Below, in pieces: positions 1 to 20,000 of a stretch of DNA of 20,000 bases (positions within the stretch are counted from its first letter, which is position 1; every line of letters begins with the position of its first letter). Below the pieces are notes generated by a model, which was not told the DNA's origin, searched no databases, and saw nothing but the letters and a program-made list of their open reading frames with translations. A program made the translations under genes and the position numbers. This DNA is from Seison nebaliae (lineage: Eukaryota), in NCBI GenBank assembly GCA_023231475.1, contig JALJEE010000107.1:55957-75956 (forward strand), read 5' to 3'.

Positions 1-1980
1 CAGCTTTATTGAAATGTGTCGAATTATCATCAGGAAATGTGAGTAGATATCGTCAAAGTAATCCAAAGATTGCTGAAATTCCTTTCAATTCAACGAACAA
101 ATATCAAGTTTCTATTCATCGAACAGATGATGGAGATCCAAGATTCTTATTAGTAATGAAAGGAGCACCTGAACGAATTCTTGAACGTTGTAGTACCATT
201 TTCATCGACAACGAAGAACAACCATTAGATGATGCATGGAAAGCGAAATTTGAAGAAGCATATATCAATCTTGGAGGTTTAGGAGAACGTGTCTTAGGTT
301 TTTGTGATTTTCGATTACCACAAGACAAATTCCATCCCAAATATGCGTTCGATGTTGATGATGTAAATTTTCCATTAGAAGAATTTCGTTTCTTAGGATT
401 AATGTCTATGATTGATCCACCTCGTGCTGCTGTACCTGGTGCTGTATCGAAATGTCGATCAGCTGGTATCAAAATTATTATGGTAACAGGAGATCATCCA
501 ATTACTGCACATGCCATTGCTAAATCTGTTGGAATAATTTCTCCAAACAGTGAGACACCGGAAGATATGGCAAAACGATTAGGAAAGAATGTGAACGAAA
601 TTGACCATAGTAAATGTAGTGCGGCAGTTATTCATGGAAATGATTTGAAGAATTATTCACCCTCAGATATCGATGATGTATTGAAAACACATGCAGAAAT
701 CGTTTTTGCTAGAACGTCACCACAACAGAAATTGATTATTGTCGAAGGTTGTCAACGACAGGGACAAATCGTCGCTGTAACTGGTGATGGTGTCAATGAT
801 TCACCAGCATTAAAGAAAGCTGATATCGGCGTTGCTATGGGTATCGCTGGTTCAGATGTGAGTAAACAAGCTGCCGATATGATTCTCTTGGATGATAATT
901 TCGCTTCAATTGTAGTCGGAGTAGAAGAAGGTTTCATTTGACTTTTTTAAAATTTTTTTAATAATTTTTTAAAAAATTTTTAAAAAATTTTAAGGTCGTT
1001 TAATTTTCGATAATTTGAAGAAATCGATCGCTTATACATTAACATCGAATATTCCCGAAATCACACCGTTTTTGGTGTTCATCGTTTCAGATATTCCTCT
1101 TCCTTTGGGAACTGTAACAATTCTATGTATCGATTTGGGAACTGATCTCTTCCCAGCTATTTCTTTGGCGTACGAGAAAGCGGAAACAGATATTATGAGA
1201 AGAAAACCTCGTGATCCAATCAATGATAAATTGGTCAATCAACGTCTCATTTCCATCACTTACGGTCAAATCGGTTTCATTCAGGTTATAATTAAAATTT
1301 AAGAAAATATTTTCAAAAAATTTTTCTCTTATTTTTTTGAAGGCAACTGCCGGTTTCTTTGCCTATACGGTAATTATGGCAGAAAATGGATTTTGGCCAA
1401 GTCGTTTATTTGGAATTCGTGCCGCTTGGGACTCGTCAGCAATTAACGATTTAGAAGATTCTTATGGACAAGTTAATTATTTCATTTTTTTTCCAGTTCT
1501 TATTCTAGACATTTAAAGGAATGGACATTTCAACAACGAAAAACATTAGAATATACTTGTCATACAGCTTTCTTCGTCTCCATCGTTATCGTACAATGGA
1601 CCGATTTGCTTATTTGTAAAACGAGACGTCTCTCAATCTTACAACAAGGAATGAAGTTAATAATTTTTGATAGAAAATTTAAAAATTTTATAATTTTCCT
1701 TTTTTAATAGAAATCATGTGATGACATTCGCCTTATTCTTCGAAACAGCACTTGCTGCTTTCTTGGCATATTGTCCCGGTATGGATAAAGTTTGTCTATT
1801 TATTAATTCTTTCTCATTTTATTATTAATCCAATAGGGTATTCATATGTATCCGTTACGTGCATCTTGGTGGTTACCAGCACTACCCTTCTGCATAATAA
1901 TATTGATTTATGATGAAGTACGTAAATATCTAATAAGAAAGAATCCTCACGGATGGGTAGAACAGGAAACGTACTACTAG
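1..1980 (+). CDS. ATP1A: Na+/K+-transporting P-type ATPase alpha subunit, 5'-partial. Exons <1..930, 995..1284, 1343..1471, 1519..1655, 1711..1789, 1837..1980 (568 aa visible)
   Basis: P2C ATPase motifs are present: [87 protein letters not shown], and C-terminal WVEQETYY followed by TAG (1978-1980). Five GT..AG introns (931-994, 1285-1342, 1472-1518, 1656-1710, 1790-1836) restore a continuous frame across conserved junctions (VEEG/RLIFDN, GFIQ/ATAGFF, SYGQ/EWT, GMK/NH, MDK/GIHMYPL). Confidence 0.98.
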
Positions 1981-2370
1981 TCGTCGGAATAGATAGAGAA
2001 TCGATCAATTCAATGAACGAAGAACGACCGAAACATTTATTCTGACTAACTATTTTTTATATCAATTTATTGAGATATGATGCAACTGATTGATGAGTTC
2101 AAATACAAATCGAATTAATGAGAGAAATATATCGATTTATTTAAATTAATGTAGCAAAAAACAAATTCTCCATTCGAATTTTTCCATCATTCATTTGGAA
2201 TATTTCAATGGAAATTTTTTCATTTTAACATTTTTTTTTGTTTAAAAAATTTTCCTTACTTTTCTCCTCCTACTTTCTTTTTCAAATTGTTGATAACAAA
2301 TAACAAAATATTTTCATTTGTTTTCTTTCGTTTCTCTTTATTATTCTTATATTATTCTTATATTATACAA

Positions 2371-2413
2371 ACTCACACACACATACACACACACTCACAC
2401 ACATACACACACA
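2371..2413. repeat. Imperfect (CA)n microsatellite downstream of the ATPase stop codon
   Basis: The sequence actcacacacacatacacacacactcacacacatacacacaca is read directly. It accounts for the spurious THTHIHTHSHT run in the ORF at 2287..2481. Confidence 0.9.
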
Positions 2414-3995
2414 ATATATATGATTTATTGTCGGATCTATCTATAGCAGGTTTATGCACAAAACGAAACCTTAAAATTTAATATTTTTCAAAATTTCATA
2501 ATTGAACATTCTTTCGTTCTCCGGGTCGTAAAAATATATACAATAGATATTTCTCCATTTTCTTTCATTTATATATTAGTGTCAGAAACATCGTCATAAA
2601 AGTATTGTGCACAAAAAATGCACAATCTCATCCTATGGAAAATAACAGTAATAATGTAATTTTGAGAAATTTCGAAAAGAACACACAACAGAAAAATTGA
2701 TCGATTCTTTACATTTTTTGGAAGAATTTTGGAAATGAAAATTTTCCCTCGAAACATTTCCTTGTTCGAATTTATTTAAAATGAGCAGAACCGTCTCGAA
2801 ATTTTCCTTTTTAATTATTCCTTCCTCCAAATTTATTATTAACTCGCAGATTCATTGATTATCGTTAAAAATTAAATGTTTTCCTTTGTTATATTAGTAG
2901 AATTAGCGATTAATCAAAATTTTTATTCTTTCCATCATCCATCATCACTTTATGATCGATTAACAGCGATTTTTACTTACTAATCGGTCAATTTCCTTCT
3001 TTTCATCCAAATTAAAAAATAAGAAATGAAAATTTCATATTTAACTTAAATAGATCGATATTTACGTTTTGGATATTGGAATGGGCAATTTATGAGAAAT
3101 GGAAATAATGATCAGTTCATCATCATTCGAGATATATTTCATCCTGTTCAAATATTTTAATTCAATTTATAATGATTATTATCAATATTTCACTTTTTTT
3201 TTATTATACAATTTTAATGATGAAGATTAGAAATTAAATTATTTTTCGTTGTATCTCTTACTATGCAAATGCAGTAACGATATTTGACATATCCGAATTG
3301 AACCAGAAATATAACAAAAGAACAAGAAATTATGTCGATTAAGAAAACTGATTTGAAATTGTTTTACTGGAAATTTAAGAAAATAGATTGAGATAACAGT
3401 TACCATATATACTAGATATTAGATACATGTATATTTGCCATGAAATTTATTAGATCAATATTTCATCGATTATTTAATGATTATAGAATATTGTCAATAT
3501 TATGTTTATGATTTTTTCCAAATAATATGGCTATTCTAACTATGATTTTATTTCTTAACATTTTTATTAATTTTTATTAATTTTTATTTTCATTATCTTT
3601 CCTTCTTTTATTATGATATGTGATTAAAATTGTCCACGTATATTGTAACTATCTATATTAAGGAATTAAAGGATGAATTAAAATAATTTCTGTTGGTTGT
3701 AGAAATGATATACAACATCTAATGCTTCTGATCAATTGATTATGAATAGTATTAGATATTATGTATTAGATATGATGAAGAAATATTTATGATGAAAATA
3801 TATTTCTTATTAATTTAAAGCAAAAAAAACGAAAAATAGTTAATGAGTATAAATTGGTATTGTAAGTGATCTGTTGACAACACCGGTGTCTATTTTTATG
3901 TGTTAAGAAGGATCAATTTTTGTGTTTTGGTTCGTTTGTAAAAAAAATGTTTTAATTCTTCTTCAATTCATTCAATTTGTTTTGGAAGTGTGTAT

Positions 3996-6900
3996 TTATA
4001 AGAAAGTTGTCTTCATTTTAGATGAGAGTTGAAGTTTCTTGTTTTTGTTTGTGTTAAGAATTCGAATTTGTGAGATACGTTTATCAATTTGTTCGATATT
4101 AAATAGTGGCGGCGATGATGAATCTTTAGTTTCTTTTAGTGATGAAGATGCTGGATTGGAATCAGTCAAAGTTACATCTACATCGCTTGGTTGTATGGCT
4201 GCTAACGGTGCTCCATATTTCTGTTTCAGTGGCAAATAAGTTGAGGTAGACAATTTTTGTGGTTTGTTTTTCTTTGAAGAAAATTGTGTCTCTTTTATGG
4301 GATCATCTAAAGCGGTTAAATCCACATCATTTAAAGTACCAGAAGTATTTTTATGATGAATTTCCACACTAATGTTACTTGTTTCTGATTCGGCTAAATT
4401 TCGTTTAGACATTTCAATGGAAGACGGTAATGTCGTTTTCTGAGGTTGGGATGAGAGAGAATTGGATGATTCAATGGAAGTTGTGTAATTCATTCCACTT
4501 AATTGCTTAGCAGTTGATGGTTGATCGTTTGTTCGCTGTTGGTCTTTACCTAACACGATTGATGTGGAAGTGTTATAGAGACGATGAGCAAATTGTGATA
4601 CATCTCTGATTGATGATCTTAGTTGATGGTTTTTCATATTTTTCGAATTAGCAGTTCTCTGGTTATCTTCGTTGCTATAGCGATGAGGACATGAAGGTAA
4701 ATGATAATGTGCTGGCGATTTGATAATTTTCAAAGAATCAATTTCATCAATAAATGCACGTGAATGTTTTGAAGATTTCTTATATTTTTGCCTTTTACAC
4801 GTCACATCGAAATGTTGGAGAAGGTTAGACGATGTTGCATCTTCCTTATATTTTTTGAGTAATTTAAGACGATCTTTTCCTTTGATGGATAAGAGATTTT
4901 CTGATGATTTCAAAATATCATCAATATTTTCACTCATATCATTGATTTGTTGACGAATGTCTTCAACCTTTTGAGAATTAATTGTTGATAAACTTTCGGA
5001 TTTGGACGGACGACCCTTGAATATCATATCTTTCCCAATCGATCCGTTATATGAATCGATATTTGACCTTTCTATCAGATTATCATTCTCATCCAATGAC
5101 ATGATAACCGCCATTTGTTCAGCTTCTTCTTGTTCATCATCTTCCTCTTCACGTCGTTCATCTTCAGTATTCATTGTCAGAAATCGTAATACCAATAAAT
5201 TTACACAAGAAGCAACAACGGTAAGACCGAACAATATGAAGATTAATGAGAAAGTGACATAAGAAGGATTTGCTTCTAATGCACTCTCTCGTTGAAGAGC
5301 AACATAATCACCAAATCCGATTGTTGTTAGAGTAATGAAACAATAATAAATACAATCGAAATAATGCCAATCTTCATAATATGCAAATGCGCCCGCACCA
5401 CTTGTTATGACAATGATTGATAACATTCCACTAATTATAACCAATTCACTTTGAGTTACTTCTTGTCGCGGTCTATCCAATTGTCGTTTTATCTTTAATA
5501 GTTTCATTAAAAAGTTTAATATTTCAAATGAAAATTTACTAACTTGAATAACTATCCAACTGACTAATGCATTTAACCGTTCACCAACACTGTGGAACAT
5601 CACCAAACAAAGAGGAATTCCTGCCATCGCATATGCCATACAAAATAATTTACCACCAACTGTTTTCGGTGTTGTATGTCCATATCCTAATTTTGGAAGT
5701 AAATTAAAAAGGAAGGAAGAAATCTAAGATAAACCGATGGTAGTTATGACGGTTGTTGAAAAGTAAAAGGCTCCCGCAAACCTCCATTGGATACCTGTAT
5801 TATGGAAACCGGCTTTTAACGCCGTTTGTTCTAATAGATGTAGATCGTCTTCTGATATATTGTATAGTCCAGTTATTCGAATTTGAGATTTTCTTACACG
5901 ATCCTGATTTTGAATTTCTTGTTGTGACTCGAGTGCATCGAAGACGGCCGCTCCAATCAATAGATAAGTAAATGTACAAATGATGAGACTAAATGTTCGG
6001 ACGTTCTGTTTCTTCATGCCAAACGAGAAGAATTTTCCATTCAAAACATTTCGGATACATTTCAAATAGAAATTTGATTTTGAATATTTACTATTTGATA
6101 TTTCGTTGTTCGGTCGAAACTGATGACAACAGACTGATGTATTTTGTAATGGATGATCACCACAATGTGAATGATGGGGTTGATGATGTTGGAGAATGGA
6201 CAATGATGGACGATGAGATATATTGTCTGTAGTAACCGATGATTTTTTTGGTGGTATATTATCATTAATAATCGAACAATGTTGACTGCTAATTGATATT
6301 TTTGCACGACGACTTGACATATTCGAATCGTTTAAACTCATTTTTCTTTGAAATAATTCATTGGATGGAACTGATGAATCAATGATCTTATTACACGTGA
6401 TAACTGACGATGCTTCTGTTGATGATCTTTTTGATGTAAATAAACTTCTTTTGTGTGTCAGAATGTTTGCTGGTTTTTGCGACGGTACCGAATAATCATT
6501 CTTGATAGATGAACAATAACCACTGAAATTATCGGTCATATAACTTTGATTTGATATCGATGGTTTACCATATCTTAATGTATAACGTTGTGCATCCGTT
6601 AACGGTTTTCTATAAGCGCGACTTTTCTTTGGTCGACCCATATGTTGTTGTTGTTGATAGATTAAACAATTACGACATGGTTGAGTACTGATGGATGAAG
6701 TCTTCACTGGTTCGATGGTTTTCCTCATTCTCATATTATCATCCGTAGAAATTACAGATGATGACGTTATTATGGAATTGAGTATTTCACTTCTCTTAAA
6801 TTGATTTGAATGCTTTTGATGATAATAATGATGATGTTGATAGTGATGTTGTGAAGGATGTTGTGGACAATGATTCTTCTGATGTAATATGGTTGATTCG

Positions 6901-7070
6901 TCACCGGAACCATATTTATCAGTTGACGTATAATTCCCTTGTTCATCTTTCTTATCAGTTGAATTATCATTATTTCGTGCATCTTGTCGATGAAGAATAT
7001 GTGGCGACGATCGTTTGAGAGGAGGACGTTGCTCCGTTCGCCGTATAGTAGACGAACTGTCATCGCTCAT
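3996..7070 (-). CDS. Two-pore-domain potassium channel (K2P), TASK subfamily (KCNK3/9/15, sup-9-like). Exons 7070..5735, 5686..5544, 5492..3996; 991 aa from the first ATG; conserved core starts at ATG 6017
   Basis: TASK-type start [31 protein letters not shown] and [10 protein letters not shown]. The P1 filter TTIGYGH is formed across intron 5734-5687. Also present: M2 [18 protein letters not shown]2 filter [12 protein letters not shown], and post-M4 [18 protein letters not shown] second intron (5543-5493, GTTAGT..AAAG) removes a 17-codon AT-rich insertion in the M2-M3 loop. The true start codon is uncertain. Confidence 0.95.
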
Positions 7071-8815
7071 CTCTCCAATTACCTTATTGTCATGTTATTG
7101 TAGGATGAATAGGAAAATGATTAGGTAATGCATTTTGTTTGCACTTTTCTATTCTAATATATTTCTTCGAGATAATTATCTAAATGGCAAACAACGATAC
7201 AAGAATAAATGATTTGTTAAAATTCTTCATAAACTTCTCATTACATATATTTTTTCAAATTGAAACTCTTTCTTTTTTAAAGAAATATTTATTATAAAAA
7301 CAATTTTCCACAGAATCTAACAACTTCATTTTTATATCCACAATTATTACAATCAATTTGCTTCTAGTTTCACGACCGATGAACCGTGCGAAAGAAAGAT
7401 ATCGACGTAAATATGGAACATTGTGGAGTTTATGTAGTAGAGAAGGATCGTATCATTCACAGCGAACAGATTTGGCTTCAATCAAAAGAAAATTGAATGT
7501 TTCTCAGCAGTGCTCAGTAGGAAATATTTAATATTCTTCCTGTTTCCTTTAAACTGTTTAGCAATTTTTGCTAATAAATGAAAATAATTGCCTATTTCTA
7601 TCATACGGTTTCTCCACTATTTCACTAACGAACAAATGTCACATTAGCGGGTGAAAATAGAGATATTCTTCCATATATACACACCATTCCATCAATCTAC
7701 ACAATCACAATACTTAGATGCTTACAGACGACACATACGATTTGGAGTCTGTACCAATATGAAACTCAACAGACAATTATATAATTGTCTAGTTTTCATA
7801 TTATACTCTGAATGTTTCCCTTAATTGTGAAGGTGAACATCAGGACATTCGGTTGGAAGGAGAATGTATATGAATAGAGAATAGTAGAATTCTCTTCAAT
7901 TTCTGATATTCTGATGTCGAATCAAAGATGTTTAATGAGAAAATTTCTGTTCGCATTCTGCAATTATATGTTTTTCCTTCTAATTGAAATTAATGATAAA
8001 GATAATTATAAATAAATTTATTTAGAATATATTAAAATCCCAACACTCTCTCATTAATATGTATGGGCCGCATCCAATTGACAACTCATTCACTTCCTTA
8101 CCAGTATATACTAAATGTCTGGATGCTAGAACCTCTGATAATTAATCAACTTTTAAGAATTTGCTGATGTTTAATTCTTCCTATATTAGCTTGAATTATT
8201 CTTATTCTATGAAAATTTTAAACCTTTATATTTATTATATAATTTACATAGTTGATTGGAGACACGATTTATTAATGTTCATAAACTTCAATATCTTCCT
8301 TTATATACAATACAATTTAATTTATAGTAAGTTAACAAGAATTTAAGGTTAACAAAATGATTTTCTCATCAGGAGAATCGGAACAATCGGAAGAGGTGAA
8401 TCTATGGGAACCTTAATGATGCTAAATCACAAGTTCTCAAAATACATTCTCTTAAAACTTTGTCTTTTATTCAAATGAAATATGAGCACAAAATATTCAT
8501 TAGAAAAAAAAGGAAATTAAAAAAATTATTTGATATGAAAGTCAGACAGGAAACACTTTTAAATAAAAAAAGTTCGCGTTATAGATTCCCTTTCAGAATC
8601 ATTCTCACTACTTTGTAAAATACCAACTGGATATTAGTAGTCTTCCTCGGACCTAAACAAGTTGAAGACGATAAACATAATAATATTGAACATCATTTCT
8701 TTTTCGAACAACGAAAAGGGCAATAATAAGACAGAAATATTATTTGCATGTTGTTCAAATTTTGATTATGATAATGATAATGATGCAAAGAAGAAAATAA
8801 TATTACATTAATTTC

Positions 8816-8846
8816 GATATATGTATATATATAAATATATATATAT
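8816..8846. repeat. Short imperfect (TA)n microsatellite
   Basis: The sequence atatatgtatatatataaatatatatatat is read directly. Confidence 0.7.
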
Positions 8847-11800
8847 TCCTTCTTAAATTACAACTAACGACCCTCTGTAAAAGATTGGAGACGTAATTCT
8901 GATTAATTTTCCTTCAAGAAATTTATATCGTTTCATCTCATAATATCTTATGGATTTTCTTCTTACGTCAGCAAAAAGTGGTAGGGGCAATTAAGAATGA
9001 AACCGAGAAAAGTTAAAGTCACTATGTGCTCTTTTTTTGTGTAGATGTTGTGCAGAAGGTTTCAATAAGTTTTTATCATAATACGATGTTAACATACAAA
9101 TAAATGATTTTCTCAATTATCATCGAAAAGTAATTGGAGAAATATACAAAATACTTATTTCCAGTCATAATAAATAAATTTTTTACTTTCTCATAATTCT
9201 TGTGCACTCCATATGCACAATCTGTGCAATGTATTAAAAATAAAAATATTGATATTTCTATTCTTATGCATTGAAGATATTTATGTAAAGTTGTGTAATT
9301 CTACAAATTCCTCTCGTACAGATACATACTAACTAATATAAGTAACTTAATAATCATTAATAATTTCAATCACAATAAGACGAACAAACATACAAGCTCA
9401 AATAGGGACATAAGAAAATACATTCATTGGAGAATATTTCATGTACATTCGGTAATGACTGTTAGATTCTTATGTTAATGCAACATTACCATGAACGTAT
9501 AATCTCTTATAAGAAAATGCACAAAAAAGAAAGATAGCTTATTCAACTTTTGTGAACATGTCAAACATGATTTGTTATTAAGCGAATTAAGCAAATAATT
9601 TCCTTTTCTTACTCTCCATCCGCTTTCTTTTTCCTTAACAATGTACAACAATAATTAGGCTGATTATTGATTACGGTAGGAATCAGTGAACATTCGAAAT
9701 AGTAAAAAAAATTGGTAATTCGAATCCGGTTTCTTATCGTGATTCATCTTTCATCATTTACGTTGCCCCTTCTCATTATCATGATCGTTGACGGAGATGA
9801 TCATTTGACGGAGTAATATAAAATAGTTTTCTTTTTATCTCACCATCATTCTCCTTCCTTCAGTGCCACTCTTCTTCTCTAAATTACAAATAATAAAACA
9901 TCAGATCGAAAATTATCCAAATCTATTCGATTTATTTCCAAGAAAACTTCATTCATGTCTAGTTATTGTTCGAAACATATAAGAAAATTTTTATGTAAAT
10001 GTTCGATTTTATGATATTTTCTTCTTCTTCTTCTGTTGTAGGGAACAAAATGTTATTATTACGTAAATGTAGAATTGTATAATGTAAAAAAGTGAAGATG
10101 CTTCTATGTATATTGCCATTCACCAATTTCTCGTTATGCTTTCTCATTTCGATGCATTTGGGATGATTGTCGATTCTTTCTTCATATCTTTTTTCTTTTA
10201 TTCATAATAAATAAATGCAAATATTCAGTTGAAATTTCGCTTCAAAATTATCCTACCCAAAATAGTAATATCATCAGAAAAACTCTATCAACGAAAAAAT
10301 ATGGATATGGAAAGGAATTGCTCCATTTTATGTCTAGAATCGCCTTATACACGATTGTATGAAATGTGACATATTTATGCAAGTCCATACATGAATTTAT
10401 GAATATTAGAGAGATCTATGTAAATAATCCAATGATAGCAGATGACGTTCCATCAGACTAAATTGAACGACATTGATTCCGTGATTCTCTTAGGAAATAT
10501 ATTCTGATGTCAGAACAACTTTAATATTCAACAGATACATATCTGGTCAACTCCGAACAGTTTACTTTCTATTCCACTTTGTTTTCCATCAATATTTAAA
10601 CAATCTCCTAATTTTTAATTAACATTCTTCTTCAATATACGTTTACTTCCAACATACGACTATGATGGAGATGCAGTTCTTCTTAATTGTCATATACCCA
10701 TTAGATTACGTGATCGTTTTCAATGTGCCTTTGCTTTCTACAGTTAACAGTATCTGATCATATGACAATGAATATGATGATTGGGAAGATTTGCAAATAT
10801 CAACGTTGTATTATGAGAAATTTCGAGAGAAATTAGTATGAGGTTCTGCTGAGTAATAGATGATAATAAACGAAAATGAACAATTCATTATGAAAGTAAA
10901 TTATCGATATGGTTATTATTTTTGATTCGGATATTTTTAAATTTGCGCGAACTTCATGCGACAACTCGAAATATTTACATGAGATTGATGAACAAAAAAA
11001 TATTATGGATCATAGAGATAAGTTGGAAATGGGAAGTTTAATTATTTTTCTCACTTGGAAGATGTTATTCTGAATATCATCTTTCAATGTTGTATTATGA
11101 AAGTAATCAACTAGTAGGTGTATATCTAATCTTAGGATAAGGATATTAAATGAAGAACAATTTCCTCACTTCCTCTCCTACATGACTCATCGTCTTCTTT
11201 ATCGTCCATTTTGGTAACTTCGTGAGAAAGTTGTGATATTATGAACAGTTATTTATCATTTATTGATAAAATTTATCGTGTGATATTCAAAGTAATATTA
11301 GAAAAATTCTTGCGGAGGTGTAGAATAATAAAGAATTTTTTCTCATTTCTTTTCAAGATTGATCGACACCGAAGAATCTTCTCACTTCACTTGTCTAATC
11401 GTTCTACTTCTCGGAGGAAGTGTTAGTGCTAGTACGATATACGAAGAAGTCATATTAATGTACATAGAATTGTATGTTGAGGAGTAGAATTGAATAGTAA
11501 TGATGAGATTGAAGAATAAGAAGACTCTTATCCGAAGTAAAGTTTTGAGCGCGGTCTGAAAGAATGTTGTAGGAGTTACATGTAAAGATTAAAGAGAATG
11601 AGAATGATGTAATTAAGAGAATTGACTTGTATTTTTTTGGAGAAAGAACTAACAGAAAATGAAATGATTCAAAGATAAAAGAACAATATTAGTAAACTAA
11701 ATTAATTTCAAATAAATTTTAAACAGATTCCCAACACAATTTAAGCACGTCGACTAAATACAATCTAATAGTCAATGACATTTCTAAAAAGACTAGAATT

Positions 11801-12307
11801 TCCACATATCTCGACTGTTAATATTAATCCCCTGGCAATATTTCTAAAATTTCACCAACATTTCCTACCTATATCACTACGTGTGCGCTTACTCAACATT
11901 TATTTCAGATGCACTCTCGCAAATGGAACACACATCTGTAAATAAATGAACACATAGTAACATGTAACAACACATGTTCTTCCATCGATCAAATTGGTGA
12001 GCATATGAATAAATTTTAATTAATTTCTTTCCAATTCTACATGAATAGATGGAGCGAAGTCGATTATTTTACCTGTGCATTGTTTTCCATCGACATGATT
12101 ATCTATAATTACGTAGGAAGATATATTAAGAATTAATTAATCAATTTCATTTCCTTCTTCTTTCCCAAGGAACAATAAGAAAGGCACAATCATCCATAAA
12201 TAATGATTGGTATAACTTCCATTCGACTATGGTGCATGGAGGTGAAATGGAGGAAAATATTGAAATTCTTTAGTTTAATTTTCCCAATAGTATGCATTAG
12301 TTTGATA

Positions 12308-12367
12308 AATGAATGAATGAATGAATGAATGAAGAATGAGTGAGTGAGTGAGTGAGTAAGTGAATGA
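12308..12367. repeat. Compound tetranucleotide microsatellite (GAAT)n-(GAGT)n
   Basis: aatgaatgaatgaatgaatgaatgaa is followed by gaatgagtgagtgagtgagtgagtaagtgaatga. Confidence 0.9.
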
Positions 12368-15009
12368 TTGAGAAAGAAACCTTTGAAACAGCCAAAAAGA
12401 AATGCATTAGAGAAGAAATGAAGGCATAATAATTATTATTATTACCATACAGCTGCTTCGATCAAAACTAACAAAATTTAGGCAGCTGTGTACGATTATG
12501 TTCTCTCCTCTTATTTAAAACATCAAATTCATTTTATGTGCATAAGCATCAATACACATTCTTGTGAGATTCTGTTCATAAAGAAAATAATTATTAAATA
12601 TTTTCTAATAATATGATTCTTTAAGGATATTGACATGAAATACTTCCATCTATCTACGTCCGCATGTATATGGAGAACATAACACATATTATTTTTATTA
12701 AAAACAATTCACCAATAGAAAGCCCCCCGAAGTTCACAGTTAAGGTGGACCGATATATGTATATGTGCCCAAAATTCATTCTACCCAATCTGCGCAAGTA
12801 AAAACAAATGAAAATTTAAATATTTCCACCATGTTCCGCTCAATTTATTCCGTTACATATGCATATCCTCCGTCGAAACTGTTAATCATCATATGGAAAT
12901 CGATAACTGACAATAACTAACGCCAGAGCATTACTTTTTCTAGTTTCCTGCCTTCATATTTAATTGCAGGGATGCGATAAGTCAATGACAGACAAGCTTT
13001 CTTCATTTTAGAAGGTTGACAACATTCAATATTTGTAGGCTCTTCGAATTATTCACAATAGGTAGTCAAATATTATTATTATTAAAAATAATTTTTCTTT
13101 TCCGTATCATTTAAATTGCAATAATGGTCATCTTCTGTAATATTAAGGAAAGATGATTCTAGAAGTATTTTGGGACAAATCATAATGATACGGATAATTA
13201 TATGTATTGAAAAGAAAGTATTATTATCTTCTGCATATCGATACTTCATATTTCGTGAAACTTTAAAACTTCAAATGAACAATACCTTCTGACCTATTAC
13301 TTCCCAATCAAGGAAGGTCAAAATTTATTCCAGAGAGTCTAATGATCAGCAGTATTTTCTAACAACTTACAACGTTAATGATTGAATAATTGGACAACTT
13401 GAACTCCTTATGTAAAAGCACTTTAATCATTCATCATACAAATAAGAAAAATGAGAAAAATGAGAAAAATAGTATGAAAATTTTAATTCATCTACCTTCA
13501 ATCGAATTAATAAAGTTACGAATTGAACTGATTTCTCTTAAATTAAAATTTGAACGAAAATTTTCACAATAAATTCACAAAAATCATTGATATTTCATTC
13601 AGATTATTTCCATTCCACTGTAATCATCATTCCTCCTAAATCTTCCTCAGGAGAAACTCAGGATTGGGATAATAATCTTCTTTGCATAACGTTAATGAAT
13701 ATAATTAAATAAAATGAAAGCACAAGTTGAATATATGCATCAATATTTGCCAACAACAATATTACATTAGTGAAATTATAATTTTCTCTTTCATCAGACC
13801 GTATCGTAAATGATAACTGTGAATCGTTATTGTGTTCGGTAAAAGATGTTTTTTCATCTATCTAAATACTCTAGGTAAATTGATCGTACTTGAGAAGATT
13901 CCTTAAATATCAGAAAAACTATGAAAATTGGAATTGATTGATTAGACTTCGATAGAATATTTCACCAAATAATCATGTTTATAAAATACCGTTTATAATA
14001 ATCCATTTTTTTTACTTCTTAATCGTACAAAGTTATTGTTCAATTTCCATTGAATTTCATAGTGATAATTATCGTTGTGATATATTATTAAATGAATAAC
14101 ATTAGAAGATTCAATATTAACCATTGAGCTAAAACGAAAATTATCTCGCCCAACAATCACTCCAGAAATGGAAATCCAAATGAAATATAATAATCGTTTA
14201 AAGTAGGGACAGAAGAGAAGGAAGAAAATAGTTCCAACTATTGATTAGTTTCCTCTTAAATAAATTCCATCGTTCGATTTATTAAATTATGTTCCATCGG
14301 ACCCAATATTATTTAATGAACATTTCTCAAGAGTAAACTCTGACTAATTAAATAAGCAAATATAGATAGCTTAATTCTATTTTTTTTATAAACAGAATTA
14401 GAAGAATTCCTAAATGTCTATGATGTCATCTGAAAATTGTTCTGCTTTTGCGTCATCCACTTCTTGTTATCCGTCTAAACTTATCTCATCAGCAATAAGT
14501 GGAAGAACATGATGGTCATATCTAGATAAGAATCTCGCACTTCAACTCTACTATCATTACGTTCAAGAAACCACTTATCCTCGATGTACATCCAGCAAGA
14601 AATTATAACAAATTGTCTGGAATATGCCGAATCGTAAAGTCTCCGATTTTCATGATTTTGCTTATGTTTTTTCCAAAAAAATTTCTAAATAAAGACATCA
14701 GACATTTGCAATTAACAAACATGTAGGGAATGAGACGTGCTAAAGATAAAACTGTCTATATTTTCCTGAATAATTCCAGGACGAATGATAAAAAATTAAA
14801 TTTGAATAAGTTTTTGTCTGAAATTGGTTGGAAATTGAAATTTGTTTGAAAGAGAAATATAAATTGGAAAGAAACCAATAAATGGAATAATGAAAAATTG
14901 AGTTTATGGTGAAAATTGAATTAAGAGATAGAAGGAAGAACTAAATGGAAATTGGAATTATTTCAATTTTATTGGACATATTTCTTGCAATTTTATTCCA
15001 TAATTGATC

Positions 15010-16123
15010 ATGGGTAATATTTGGGGGAAATTGGATGAAGATGCCGTTCTACCCACTTATAAAGTAACACCAGAAATGATTGAGTTATGTTTAAAAGAGA
15101 GCGAGAGGAAAGCTAAACTCTGTCCCTATTATTGGCTGTGTTGGTTCCTACCAACAATTTTTAGTTTATTAACTGCTGCCGCCATTGTCGAAGCATATTT
15201 CTTATGGAAAGGTTAACTTAAATTTTGTTTAATTTATAAAAATTAAAAACATAAAATCAGAAAAGAATCGTCGTGCTATGCTCACTTTAGCTTCTCAAAA
15301 ATTCGATCCGACTGATATTGGATCAAGTTCACTTGGTAGAAGATCGGTTGGTGACACTGGTTGGCGTCGATTATCGAATGGACCTAAAAGTGGAGATATT
15401 CCTAGTTTGGAAGGAGGGAAGAAATATCCTCGTAATTCTATTCCACTCAGTAAAGGAGGTCGTCGTTCTATCACACCAGCTGATTATGAAACGAAGAGAA
15501 AGCGATTAACCGGATCTGTCGACATGACGGGTAAAAAGTTCTTGCCACCAGTAGGAGTACCGTTTCGACGAAGTTTCGATACTCAAAATCATGAAGGTGA
15601 TACGGATTATAAGAAGAATCGACTTGGTGGTAAAGATCAAAAGATGAAGAATAAGAATGTTAATGATTGGAAGAATAGAGCAAAAGGACAAGTGGATTGG
15701 AAACAGAAATTGAAAGCAGGACAATCGATTCGATTCTCAGATATCATTGATGATCGACGACATAGTAAAGACTTAGAGGCTGATTTAGATTGGAATGTAA
15801 AAGGCGGCACTGATAACAAAGGTGGATATAATAGAAGACAATCGGTTAATGAACGAATGAGACAACGAGGCCTTCCCCCACCATCAACTCCTCCACCACA
15901 AAGTTTCTTCGGACACATGAAATCCATGTTCAACAAAGATACGGGGAAGAATTTCCAATCTCAAAAAGCACCACGATCAATTGCCCATTTTGAAAAGATG
16001 AAGAAAGATCAACCAGGACAATTAGTTCGAGGCGAGAAGATTGTTGGTGATATTGATGATATTGAAGTGACATCGGAAGATACGGAACAAGGAAAGAGAA
16101 AGAATGAGTTTTTTGATGTTTAA
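15010..16123 (+). CDS. Uncharacterised single-pass membrane protein, 354 aa. Exons 15010..15211 and 15261..16123
   Basis: ATG at 15010 (MGNIWGKL...). A hydrophobic segment YWLCWFLPTIFSLLTAAAIVEAYFLW is followed by basic residues. A 49-nt intron (15212-15260, GTTAAC..TCAG) joins the two listed ORFs in frame (WKEKNRRAMLTL). Stop TAA at 16121-16123, with AATAAA at 16151. I recognise no family motif. Confidence 0.8.
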
Positions 16124-16150
16124 TAATGACGATGAATGCGCTAAATTATA

Positions 16151-16156
16151 AATAAA
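16151..16156 (+). terminator. Putative polyadenylation signal for the 15010..16123 gene
   Basis: AATAAA lies 28 nt after the stop codon. Chance occurrence is plausible in such AT-rich DNA. Confidence 0.45.
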
Positions 16157-16573
16157 AAGAGAATTATTTTAATTCAGTTGTTTCCATTCAAGAATTAAAA
16201 ATCCTCAATTTTTCTGAAAATTGAAATCGAATGAAATCCCATAATTTTTTTCGAATAATTTCGAAGAGAAAAATATGTCAAAAAAAATGAGTAAATTAAA
16301 TTGAATTTCCATCAACATCGAAAAATGTAAATGATTTTTGAATATCAATAAATCAATCTGATTATGATTAGTTGGATGAAGGAGAACAGTATCCAAAAAT
16401 TCGTAATTATATATAGTCTGATGTGTTCTCAATAATATATATGATGTTGTATGGAAATATAAAATAAATGAGTATTGATGAAATTCAAAAAAAAAGAGAA
16501 AATTAAAAGATTAAAATATTTTTGTTTAAACAAATCAATATCGATTGCATAATACATATATTGATTAGGGATA

Positions 16574-18203
16574 TTATAGAGAAAATTTCTCTTTTTCATA
16601 AACAAGATTAATCGCATCATAAATACTGTTGACGGTGAAGTTGGGTATTAATAGACGTTTATCCATATGAATATCTCGATGACCATGATTGATGATATTT
16701 CCGTTATCATTATGATGTTGATTTTTTTCTCGATCATTCTCTACTGCTTCCAATGAACCACTACCATGAGAATAGACTCCAGTTAATACCAATATTGATT
16801 TCATACATTCCAAATATTTTGTTGTCGATAATAATTCGTTGACCATCGATTCATCCAATTCATTTAAATTGGCAAAACTTTTCCCGAACTTTGCCATCAT
16901 TTCATCCATATCTGCAAAATTATAATAATATTTAAAAATGAACGAAAGAAAGAGAACTGTTAGCTGTTTTGAAGTCTTTCAAAAATTTCGAATAAGAATT
17001 TGCTCCATAAATATCTGAATCAGGATTATCGCCAATCGCATATATCCGTTTCAATGGTACTTCGACACCCATTGCCAAACTAATTTGTGAGAGACAATAT
17101 TGAGCATGATGATATGTCAATTCACATGGTTTGCCTGATAGGGCCGTATATGTTAATTGGTTACCGGTGATCTTTTTATATAATTCTTCCAAACACAACA
17201 GAAATGTTCCATGACCAAATCGAGGTAACGGAGCTTCTGCCATCCACAGTAAATCCATATTACAAGCAAGAACTGGTAAATGAGGCAAATCGGTTATTTT
17301 ACGTCTTTTCTCTATTGGTTGCAATTTATTTGTTCTATGTAAATCGGGCATTCCATGTGAAAGAATTGTATCTAAAATTAATTGAAGATGACTTTCCCAC
17401 CTGACAGGTTCACCAAAAAGAACGACAGCTTCGATCGGTTGAAAAAATTCTTCAAATGCACAAGGCTACAAATGACGATGAGATGAAAGTGAAATTATTT
17501 TATTGATAAATTCACTAACAGCATGAATTCGTCGTTTGAAATCCACCATATCCAAATAAGGGAACGAATGTCTTAATTGATCAACTGTTATAGTTTTTTT
17601 AAAACCGAGACTGAAAAAAAAGATGTTTATAAAATTTAATTATTGAAAAAGAAATTTAAACTTTTGTGCTATCTCAACGATTGGTCCTTGTCCACTGATG
17701 AGCACATGAAGATTGTGAAAGTTAGAGAATAATTTCAATGGACTATGCGATAGAATTATTTGTTCTGGAGTTACCTTAAGAAAATTAAAATTAATGAATG
17801 AGAATAATTAAAGGAGATTAATTGTAAATAACTTTTATTTCGAGTAATGCAGATAATTGTTCAGCTTTCGATGAACGTAATGTATTTCCAGCATTTGTAA
17901 CAAATACAGTTGGCACTATAAAATTATTATTCTTATCCACCAACATCTCATGAACTGCGCGATATGCTTGAGGTAACAATGTCTTTCCACGTACGAACAC
18001 TCCATCGATATCAAATATAAATCCGAATGGTGATGGATTATCTTTGAAGTAATTTGAAGCTCGTGAATAATTTATATTTTTTATAGAAATTGTTGTCGAA
18101 AATTTCTTGAATGATATTTTCAAAATCTTTAAAAATTTTAAATAAATTTACAAAATTGAAAATGAAAAAAATTAACGTTCTGGAGAAAAATTTTCGAAAA
18201 CAT
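16574..18203 (-). CDS. HDHD5: HAD-superfamily class IIA hydrolase HDHD5/CECR5-like, 456 aa. Exons 18203..18177, 18126..17833, 17774..17662, 17610..17520, 17465..16958, 16911..16574
   Basis: HAD motif I FGFIFDIDGVFVRG, motif II VFVTNAG, CECR5-type blocks QIILSHSPLK, LISGQGP, LFGEPVRWE, ACNMDLLW and PRFGHGTF, motif III/IV GKP...YAIGDNPDSDIYGAN, and terminal SILVLTGVY. Five GT..AG introns (50, 58, 51, 54, 46 nt) give a continuous 1371-nt frame. The N-terminus MFSKIFLQNILKISFKKFSTT is basic, hydroxylated and free of acidic residues, like a mitochondrial presequence. Confidence 0.95.
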
Positions 18204-19490
18204 TATTACTTTTTCGAAAATTTAAAGCGTTATTAGAGTTTGTCGTTGCTAGAATTATGGTAGTTACTGATTGAATAAATGAAATTGAATTATCTTTCAA
18301 TCTTCTTTAAATAATGGAAATGATTTAATTGTTGAAAATTGAAATTTTCATTGTCTTCTAAAATTCTCTCTGAAAGTCATCGTTGTTGAATGTTTATGAT
18401 GGTTTTCGCTTCATTCTATTTAGAAAAAAAGTGAAACAAAAAAAAATGATTAAAAATTTTGTTGATAAATAGTCTTTAGATAAATGAATAAATTAAAGTT
18501 ATAACTAACAATTATTCGTTTGTGCTTCAATTAGTCAAATATAAATGAAATGTGCACGAAAAGAAAATTATTTTGCTCATTAAAAATTTAAGAAAACAAT
18601 GTATAAATATAAAGACTTACATGAGTGTCCAAATTGATGTGACAGACAATAAGAAATTTATCTTAAATAAATTTTCGATTATTATCCAACTAATCAGTAG
18701 ACAGTGGGGAAGTATACACAGAGGGAGAGAACGGATAGAAATTGAATGAAGTATTATTAATTTAATAATTAACTTCTTTTAATAATAGAGCAGCATGGAC
18801 TAATATTCAAATTGGATTATCTCTCTCACTCTATTAACAACATGAGAGAATTAAAGTCTGTTGGATTTCATTCAACACGACAGAAAATTTCCATTCGCTG
18901 TACATGAATGATGTGAATTGTATAATTCATTTCTGGTAATTTAACACTACTTCTCTTTCTTCCATTTTGTCACCCTTCTTTATTTGATGAAATTTTAATA
19001 TGATGGGTTACTTTCTCAAATAATTTTCTTCTTATTTTCTACTTCATCCGTCTAATCATCAATTTGCGTGAAAAGGAAATTCTTTCATCGAACAACACCA
19101 ACAGATTCTTTACATAATTGACAATTGTGAAGATTGATACCTATCGATATCACAAAACAGATTTGTTGGTGTTAAATATTGATTTCGTTGATAATTCCAG
19201 GCTAATCATGCTAATTTCCTCACCTCTTGTATTGCATTCGATAACTGCGCAGATTATAATTCAATATAAAAATTTTACCGAGTCTAATTTTCAAATTTTA
19301 TTTTTTATCTCTTTGGACAGTTCTGACAATGAGATTTTCCTTAATTTTTAAGATGGTTCTCAACCTTACAACATACTGAAAAGGTAACTAGAAAGATCAA
19401 AACTTTAAATACGAAATTTCCTCATTTTCTTAATTCATAGTTTTAAGATTAACAATGTCCAATATAAACAAACTCCAATATGAAGATATA

Positions 19491-20000
19491 TTTTTTTTTT
19501 TTTATTTTTTTATTTATAGCAAATCCCCGCGGGGTAAATTAAAAAGAAAAAAAGATAATTCCTTAAAGGAGTTATTAAAGATTAGGTTCCTGCCCGTTAC
19601 AATAAAATGCTTGAGTGCTTCAGGAACGTGATAAGACAAATCAAAATTAGATGTCACCGATAAAGCGTCTTCCATTGAAAGAGGATAATTTAACGAGTAA
19701 TAACGGAAGAAAAATTGGAGAGGCGACGAGAAGCTCTCACATTGTGTATACGTTGGAACTGAAAGAGTTGAACTGCGAACAGAATCAACTACTTTCAGAT
19801 ACCTCTGTGCCAGGAGTAATGGCAAAGGAGTCAATTCGCAAATCATGAACATAAATGCTCTATTGAAAGGCTTATGACAACCGAGCATCATCCGAACTGA
19901 TCTATTATATGTTCGATCAAGACATCGTAATGACTTATCAGTATTCGAAATGGAAACTGGCAATCCATAGAAGTCGCAACAGTAACAGACAAATAGCTTC
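19491..20000 (-). mobile_element. 3' end of a non-LTR (LINE-like) retrotransposon: C-terminal part of an RT-containing ORF plus genomic poly(A) tail; runs off the window edge
   Basis: The frame is open and intronless from the window edge to TAA at 19516-19514. It translates as KLFVCYCCDFYGLPV...LDRTYNRSVRMMLG...PLPLLLAQRYLK, which resembles the LF.SYC..FYG...N..VR.LLG post-RT region of LINE ORF2 proteins (my recognition, not a database search). The stop is followed directly by AT-A7-T-A13 (19513-19491). The segment is visibly more GC-rich than its flank. The catalytic RT motif is outside the window. Confidence 0.75.

Follow-up and report, generated by a model that had tools for sequence, protein, structure and literature searches.

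To our knowledge, a purine at the third intron position (+3) is nearly universal among the 5′ splice sites (donors) of animals, and co-evolution of the donor with the U1 small nuclear RNA (snRNA) has been shown only in few amoebae. The closest described case is Entamoeba, an intron-poor amoeba with GUUUGU at 88–90% of its donors and a co-evolved U1 (AACAAAC), according to the accessible part of a preprint (bioRxiv 10.1101/2022.06.08.495308). There the U at +3 and +4 of the Entamoeba donors is accompanied by ACAAAC in the U1, and Physarum is said to hold a standard and a modified U1. Here, we analysed the splice sites in a 20-kb window of DNA from the seisonid rotifer Seison nebaliae, whose genome is compact, with ~44–46 Mb and 32% GC by the available text of its genome report (PMC8351084).

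The window is the whole analysed stretch of 20,000 nt, and it carries four protein genes on both strands. All 14 introns shorter than 100 nt (46–94 nt) start with GTT and the only long one (205 nt) with a perfect canonical GTAAGT, giving GTT at 14/15 overall and a length split that rests on one intron. A divergent donor consensus in the short introns is supported by this 14/14 count. It likely represents a genome-wide rewritten splice signal, the genome-wide step being extended from four genes.

Fifteen introns in four genes

The genes are as follows, with positions counted along the window.

1–1980, forward strand: Na+/K+-ATPase alpha subunit, 3′ part (residues 453–1020 of P0004); five introns
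3996–7070, reverse strand: TASK/sup-9-like two-pore K+ channel (K2P; P0242, SNEBB_001942); two introns
15010–16123, forward strand: orphan gene (P0361, SNEBB_001943); one intron
16320–18783, reverse strand: transcript of an HDHD5/CECR5-like HAD hydrolase (P0121, SNEBB_001944), coding sequence 18203–16574; five coding introns and one two-donor intron in the 5′ untranslated region (UTR)

Their introns are listed with the last three exon bases, a slash, the donor hexamer and the acceptor end.

931–994, forward: ATPase, 64 nt, AAG/GTTTCA ... TAAG; protein model, homologues 79/79
1285–1342, forward: ATPase, 58 nt, CAG/GTTATA ... GAAG; protein model, homologues 79/79
1472–1518, forward: ATPase, 47 nt, CAA/GTTAAT ... 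AAAG, with AGs at +25 and +37 skipped; protein model, homologues 77/79
1656–1710, forward: ATPase, 55 nt, GAA/GTTAAT ... ATAG; protein model, homologues 75/78
1790–1836, forward: ATPase, 47 nt, AAA/GTTTGT ... ATAG; protein model, homologues 74/77
5687–5734, reverse: K2P, 48 nt, TCG/GTTTAT ... TTAG; protein model, homologues, transcript row
5493–5543, reverse: K2P, 51 nt, CAA/GTTAGT ... AAAG; protein model, homologues 116/118, transcript row
15212–15260, forward: orphan gene, 49 nt, AAG/GTTAAC ... TCAG; database model only, the least supported of all
18127–18176, reverse: HDHD5, 50 nt, AAC/GTTAAT ... AAAG; protein model, transcript
17775–17832, reverse: HDHD5, 58 nt, AAA/GTTATT ... TAAG; protein model, homologues, transcript
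17611–17661, reverse: HDHD5, 51 nt, AAA/GTTTAA ... TCAG; protein model, homologues, transcript
17466–17519, reverse: HDHD5, 54 nt, GCT/GTTAGT ... GTAG; protein model, homologues, transcript
16912–16957, reverse: HDHD5, 46 nt, ACA/GTTCTC ... GCAG; protein model, transcript
18416–18509, reverse: HDHD5 5′ UTR, 94 nt, ATT/GTTAGT ... ATAG, proximal donor; transcript row i2
18416–18620, reverse: HDHD5 5′ UTR, 205 nt, CAT/GTAAGT ... ATAG, distal donor and common acceptor; transcript rows i1

A sequence-only reading of the window had listed 13 introns and proposed a divergent donor code for all of them. Its hexamers agree with the window sequence in every coordinate and strand, as do its counts of T at +3 (13/13), A at +4 (8/13), G at +5 (3/13) and T at +6 (8/13). 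The transcripts add GTTAGT at 18509 and GTAAGT at 18620, both on the reverse strand, from the two-donor UTR intron, which was absent from that reading together with the length split. The proposed code is supported for the short introns but is not universal, the 205-nt intron being canonical. Donor 18509 was unseen by the earlier reader and so is an unselected test of the GTT pattern, which it passes.

The database proteins P0004, P0121, P0242 and P0361 were mapped onto the window DNA with splicing. The first three give 12 introns, each with a single GT/GC-AG placement that always coincides with the donor read before, and P0361 gives the 13th (15212–15260) as the sole GT-AG option among three equivalent placements. 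Intron removal restores the homologue residue count at 10/12 junctions of the three conserved genes, in line with the earlier view that protein conservation fixes most boundaries. Each ATPase junction has the agreement of 74–79 of the 77–79 covering homologues, three HDHD5 junctions that of 106/113, 113/118 and 104/118, and the K2P junctions that of 109/116 and 116/118. The HDHD5 junctions at 18176 and 16957 fall in unconserved sequence (homologues 1/55 and 39/118), yet are present in transcripts.

The transcript evidence is supplementary file 2 of PMC8351084, consisting of GMAP alignments of assembled transcripts, of which parts 1, 188 and 189 of 400 were used along with searches of the first 19,906 rows. 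Its rows reproduce 7 of the 13 junctions inferred before (five of HDHD5 and two of K2P), and excision of the short GTT introns is shown in transcripts for 8/14. The K2P intron at 5493–5543 is stop-free and in frame and is still excised. Four transcript matches to the K2P exon pattern were dropped as they come from a different gene on a different contig.

Neither the five ATPase junctions nor that of the orphan gene is bridged by any of the 34 transcript rows listed for the contig, and the searches of the transcript table gave 0 matches to the ATPase exon pattern among the rows listed. Contigs from sequencing runs cover the window evenly across the introns and show no splice joints, which speaks neither for nor against splicing. 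Altogether, 9 of the 15 introns are supported in transcript rows, 5 by protein conservation and 1 by the database model only, and all 15 have GT-AG ends. Mis-annotation as the source of the GTT donors is rejected.

Donor pattern, composition and chance

The intron bodies consist of 54% T, 33% A, 10% C and 3% (2.9%) G. The sequence-only reading held that AT-richness would favour A as much as T at +3, but T is the likeliest base there, more than was assumed. With this composition, the chance of 14/14 GTT is 0.54^14 = 1.6e-4, or 2.4e-4 with positions +7 to +20 as the background, and that of at least 14/15 is 1.2e-3 to 1.7e-3. Unused sense GT sites in the four genes are GTT in 115/364 cases, which differs from the true donors with a Fisher p of 1.8e-7. 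All these p-values are per window, and the window had been picked from many.

An unlikely reading is that +3 is unconstrained in T-rich introns or that the contig is a sampling outlier, with T at about half of the genome's donors. The 54% T of the bodies, the flagging of this window as extreme among many, the one GTA donor and the number of four genes are all in its favour. However, p is ~2e-4 per window for 14/14, and the short intron new to the reader is also GTT. Moreover, only 7–9 of the 14 short introns have T at each position from +6 to +10, which sets +3 apart from the positions nearby. The loss of the animal rule of a purine at +3 is implied even by this reading.

The other donor positions are more relaxed. 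The short introns have A at −2 in 10/14, G at −1 in 4/14, A at +4 in 9/14, G at +5 in 4/14 and T at +6 in 9/14, and G at +6 in none of the 14. A at +4 (p = 0.006) and G at +5 (p = 0.003) are enriched over the background, and T at +6 is not. The enrichments indicate that the consensus, GTTAGT/GTTAAT among 11 distinct hexamers, departs from GTAAGT at one position, that opposite U1 nucleotide 6. A purine occupies +3 in 1/15 introns, so the GTRAG consensus of U2-type introns does not describe them. U12-type introns are likewise rejected; their donor motif is RTATCCTT, found in 0/15.

On the acceptor side, position −3 is A in 6, T in 5 and C in 3 of the 14 short introns, showing no pyrimidine preference and AAG in 6/14. 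All 14 use as acceptor the first AG whose end lies at least 39 nt from the donor and skip nearer AGs, where 39 nt is the shortest gap in the transcript-table sample; the 205-nt intron breaks this rule. Branch-point words like YTRAY/ATRAY occur at scattered places in 10/14 and in none of the other 4, and are uninformative in AT-rich sequence. There are 109 unused sense GTT sites with a downstream AG, and only 13 of them match the low GC of the true introns. Thus, GTT with a downstream AG is insufficient, and the pattern suggests recognition across short GC-poor introns.

Could the introns have arisen by the recent spread of an introner element with a GTT end? Thirteen of them are alike in length (46–64 nt) and have the first three bases in common. 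However, their bodies resemble each other no more than shuffled sequences do (mean score −3.37 for the introns and −3.01 ± 0.42 for the shuffles; best pair 10 and 8.7, respectively), and +4 to +6 vary. With the bodies unrelated, an introner origin is rejected, and its probability is very slight. TTIG/YG in TASK channels and EEG/RL in the ATPase are presumably old intron positions.

Beyond the window, 110 of the 119 distinct transcript gaps (~92%) in the three table parts are shorter than 100 nt, with a median of 51 and a minimum of 39. Hence, most introns of the genome belong to the short class. The GTT share in short introns has a one-sided 95% lower bound of 81%, provided that the four genes are representative, and by this extrapolation GTT may be the majority donor of the genome. 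The choice of GMAP between a split row and a deletion depends on splice-site strength. Split rows were given for 1 of the 8 short introns of the window and for 16 of the 102 elsewhere (Fisher p = 1). By this measure the window is no outlier and the remaining genome seems equally atypical, but this is weak evidence, and weak acceptors could mimic it.

Pairing with snRNAs and remaining features of the window

We calculated register-fixed pairing energies of the 14 short donors and 361 decoy GTs with U1 variants at nucleotide 6. Canonical U1 barely separates the donors from the decoys, with an area under the receiver operating characteristic curve (AUC) of 0.54. The AUC is 0.82 with A at nucleotide 6 (ACUAAC), 0.71 with G, 0.56 with C and 0.78 with the Entamoeba-like ACAAAC. 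Among GTT decoys only, ACUAAC still gives an AUC of 0.72 (p = 0.004), and a normal-register signal therefore exists in positions past +3 as well. Twelve donors have a rival GT within −40 to +25 nt, and the rival pairs better in 6 of them with canonical U1 and in 2 with ACUAAC. Moreover, 6/14 donors have neither G at −1 nor G at +5, which occur in 4 donors each and never in one donor together, so that hardly any stable helix would form with canonical U1.

We therefore prefer, at somewhat below even confidence, a lineage-wide selected shift of the major-spliceosome donor from GUAAGU towards GUUAGU with a putative U1 having A at nucleotide 6 (ACUAAC), which would probably accompany a canonical one. 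The short introns would be defined across the intron by their length and low GC, and +3 would be the main donor base beyond GU. The changed U1, in which A replaces the U of nucleotide 6, would read the U at +3. The two U1 types would coexist and the canonical one would still serve the longer introns. A compensatory U1 had been suggested by the sequence-only reading and agrees with the pairing energies.

Alternatively, a canonical U1 might read the donors with its register shifted by +1 or bulged at +2/+3, as at atypical human GUUAAGU sites. Roca and Krainer reportedly described in 2009 that atypical human donors are read in such registers. Several GTTAAT-like donors of the window reach 7–9 possible pairs with +3 bulged, and in the available part of one study these registers are proven, although only in a minor fraction of human sites (PMC4856993). 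However, the shifted register requires G at +6, which is in 0/14 (G at +5 is in 4/14), and allowing the bulge leaves the AUC at 0.54. Being largely refuted by the lack of +6G, this explanation is highly improbable.

Several results weigh against the preferred shift with a changed U1. The ACUAAC scores are partly circular, the variant being designed for T at +3, and they omit pseudouridine and proteins. Donors 1790 and 17661 lose to a rival GT even with ACUAAC; 11 nt upstream of donor 1790, CCG/GTATGG pairs better with U1 but is not the modelled donor. The GTAAGT of the 205-nt intron pairs at −5.5 kcal/mol with canonical U1 versus −1.4 kcal/mol with ACUAAC, so that this donor needs a second U1 or tolerance and would not be expected from a sole ACUAAC U1. 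With the unchanged ACAGA of U6, the pairs +2U:A and +3U:G are possible in all 14 short donors, and the 205-nt intron donor lacks the +3 pair. Only four genes, all from one contig, make up the sample. In the accessible part of the preprint, a standard U1 is kept in most odd-donor lineages, namely 69 Saccharomycotina species, Thecamonas and Mamiellales, mostly with changes at +4 (bioRxiv 10.1101/2022.06.08.495308).

Some of these points suit a reading that we take as a real possibility, short of probable, in which GTT is genome-wide in short introns and U1 is canonical. The U at +3 would be tolerated as a U–pseudouridine pair and selected later, via the G:U pair with the U6 ACAGAGA or changed U1C, LUC7, PRP8 or U-binding (TIA1-like) proteins, and the long introns would stay U1-dependent and keep GTAAGT. 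The perfect GTAAGT of the 205-nt intron and the +3 pairing of only the short donors with U6 fit with it, and the same possible U6 pairing is remarked for Entamoeba in the accessible preprint text (bioRxiv 10.1101/2022.06.08.495308). U–pseudouridine pairs contribute in human donors, shown at +4 and raised for +3 in the part available of PMC4856993. The AUC of 0.54, with donors no better than decoys and 6/12 beaten by nearby GTs, stands against it, as does the fact that the one published lineage with +3U, Entamoeba, did alter its U1, by the same partial source (bioRxiv 10.1101/2022.06.08.495308).

The U1 of other organisms bears on the same question. A Rfam scan found no snRNA gene in the 20-kb window, apart from one chance hit. 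A U1-pattern scan gave 0 matches in viral contigs, 21 in GTDB contigs (Rfam confirmed 3 of the 6 inspected as U1 genes of other eukaryotes) and at least 123 stretches in metagenomes; a bdelloid ATPase query found no locus in viral contigs. The matches from other organisms, none known to come from a rotifer, have T at nucleotide 6 in 126/126 (122 loci). Thus, a change there would be rare, which favours a canonical U1 over the preferred ACUAAC.

The scans also gave observations of their own. Contigs of GTDB bacterial metagenome-assembled genomes hold eukaryotic U1, as bin contamination, at L003 805–1474 (with U2), L004 1–795 (with 5S rRNA) and L015 1121–1283. In many metagenome contigs (~18 loci besides L022), U1 is near a U5-like motif, and in L022 it is near U5- and U6-like motifs, all by motif match only.

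Elsewhere in the window, the K2P model has ~350 extra N-terminal residues, rich in His, Ser and Gln, before the usual MKKQNVRT start (6018–7070, reverse strand); the transcript rows 6050–7181 and 5544–6036 are separate and no row joins them. The orphan protein of 354 residues (15010–16123, forward strand) has a hydrophobic stretch near its N-terminus and then a charged low-complexity tail. Its exon 2 as a query matched only itself among 1.84 billion representatives, and it has no Pfam match. The region 12564–13429 has two unspliced transcript rows and no gene model.

A high-copy repeat at 19530–20000 has a depth of ~130–200 times single-copy, many variant contigs and transcripts, and its minus-strand open frame has no Pfam match. 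Low-depth (3–5x) contigs up to 9% divergent were found at 2829–2866, 6124–6293 and 7132–7168, which fits a second rarer lineage or allele.

Comparison with described donor systems

In the literature searched, comprising listings, abstracts and few subscription papers, we found no report on Seison donors and no GTT consensus in an animal. In the accessible text of the Seison genome paper, 'splice' occurs a single time and snRNA does not occur (PMC8351084), and a survey of introns in 3000 genomes does not name Seison (PMC10639083). If bdelloids or acanthocephalans have the trait too, the change would be older and may already be described elsewhere. Among animals, Seison nebaliae could be the first whose 5′ splice-site code has been rewritten, having mostly GUU introns with a putative ACUAAC U1 and a canonical U1 for the minority of longer introns, as two length-sorted classes under one major spliceosome. 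We regard this claim as a whole as possible but rather doubtful.

If true, an intron-rich animal would test whether a donor change needs prior massive intron loss, as Roy and Bowser emphasise, and which of U1 and U6 is the driver of donor evolution. A natural pair is present in the HDHD5 5′ UTR, GTTAGT (94 nt) and GTAAGT (205 nt) with one acceptor. Splice models trained on human sequences would mis-score most introns of the Seison genome.

Like the canonical U2-type introns of animals, with left- and right-handed donor classes as given in the available part of PMC11842720, the Seison introns have GT-AG ends, separate −1G and +5G groups and enriched +4A and +5G. They differ in having T rather than a purine at +3, neither −1G nor +5G in 6/14 and A at acceptor −3 in 6/14. 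The GUU start is common to Seison and the atypical human shifted or bulged donors. However, the human shifted donors have G at +6 and make up ~1.5% of sites in the same partially available study (PMC4856993), whereas +6G is in 0/14 and GTT is the rule in the Seison window.

Mastigamoeba, with an ACGUAC U1, and Physarum, with two U1 types, have a single-position donor change like Seison, as described in the accessible preprint text (bioRxiv 10.1101/2022.06.08.495308). Their changes are at +4 and in amoebozoans, whereas that of Seison is at +3 and in an animal. Two U1 types side by side are reported in Physarum and would be predicted for Seison from its donors.

Entamoeba and the Seison window have in common a near-universal +3U in GT-AG introns, and in both the donor may form additional pairs with the U6 ACAGA. 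Unlike Entamoeba, Seison is intron-rich, with five introns in the last kilobase of the ATPase, six HDHD5 intron positions and many multi-intron transcripts. Only +3 is changed in Seison, +4 to +6 are degenerate and canonical GTAAGT occurs alongside. The strict GUUUGU of Entamoeba appears as GTTTGT in 1/15 Seison introns. The Seison donors resemble the transformed donors of Entamoeba but are not of that type.

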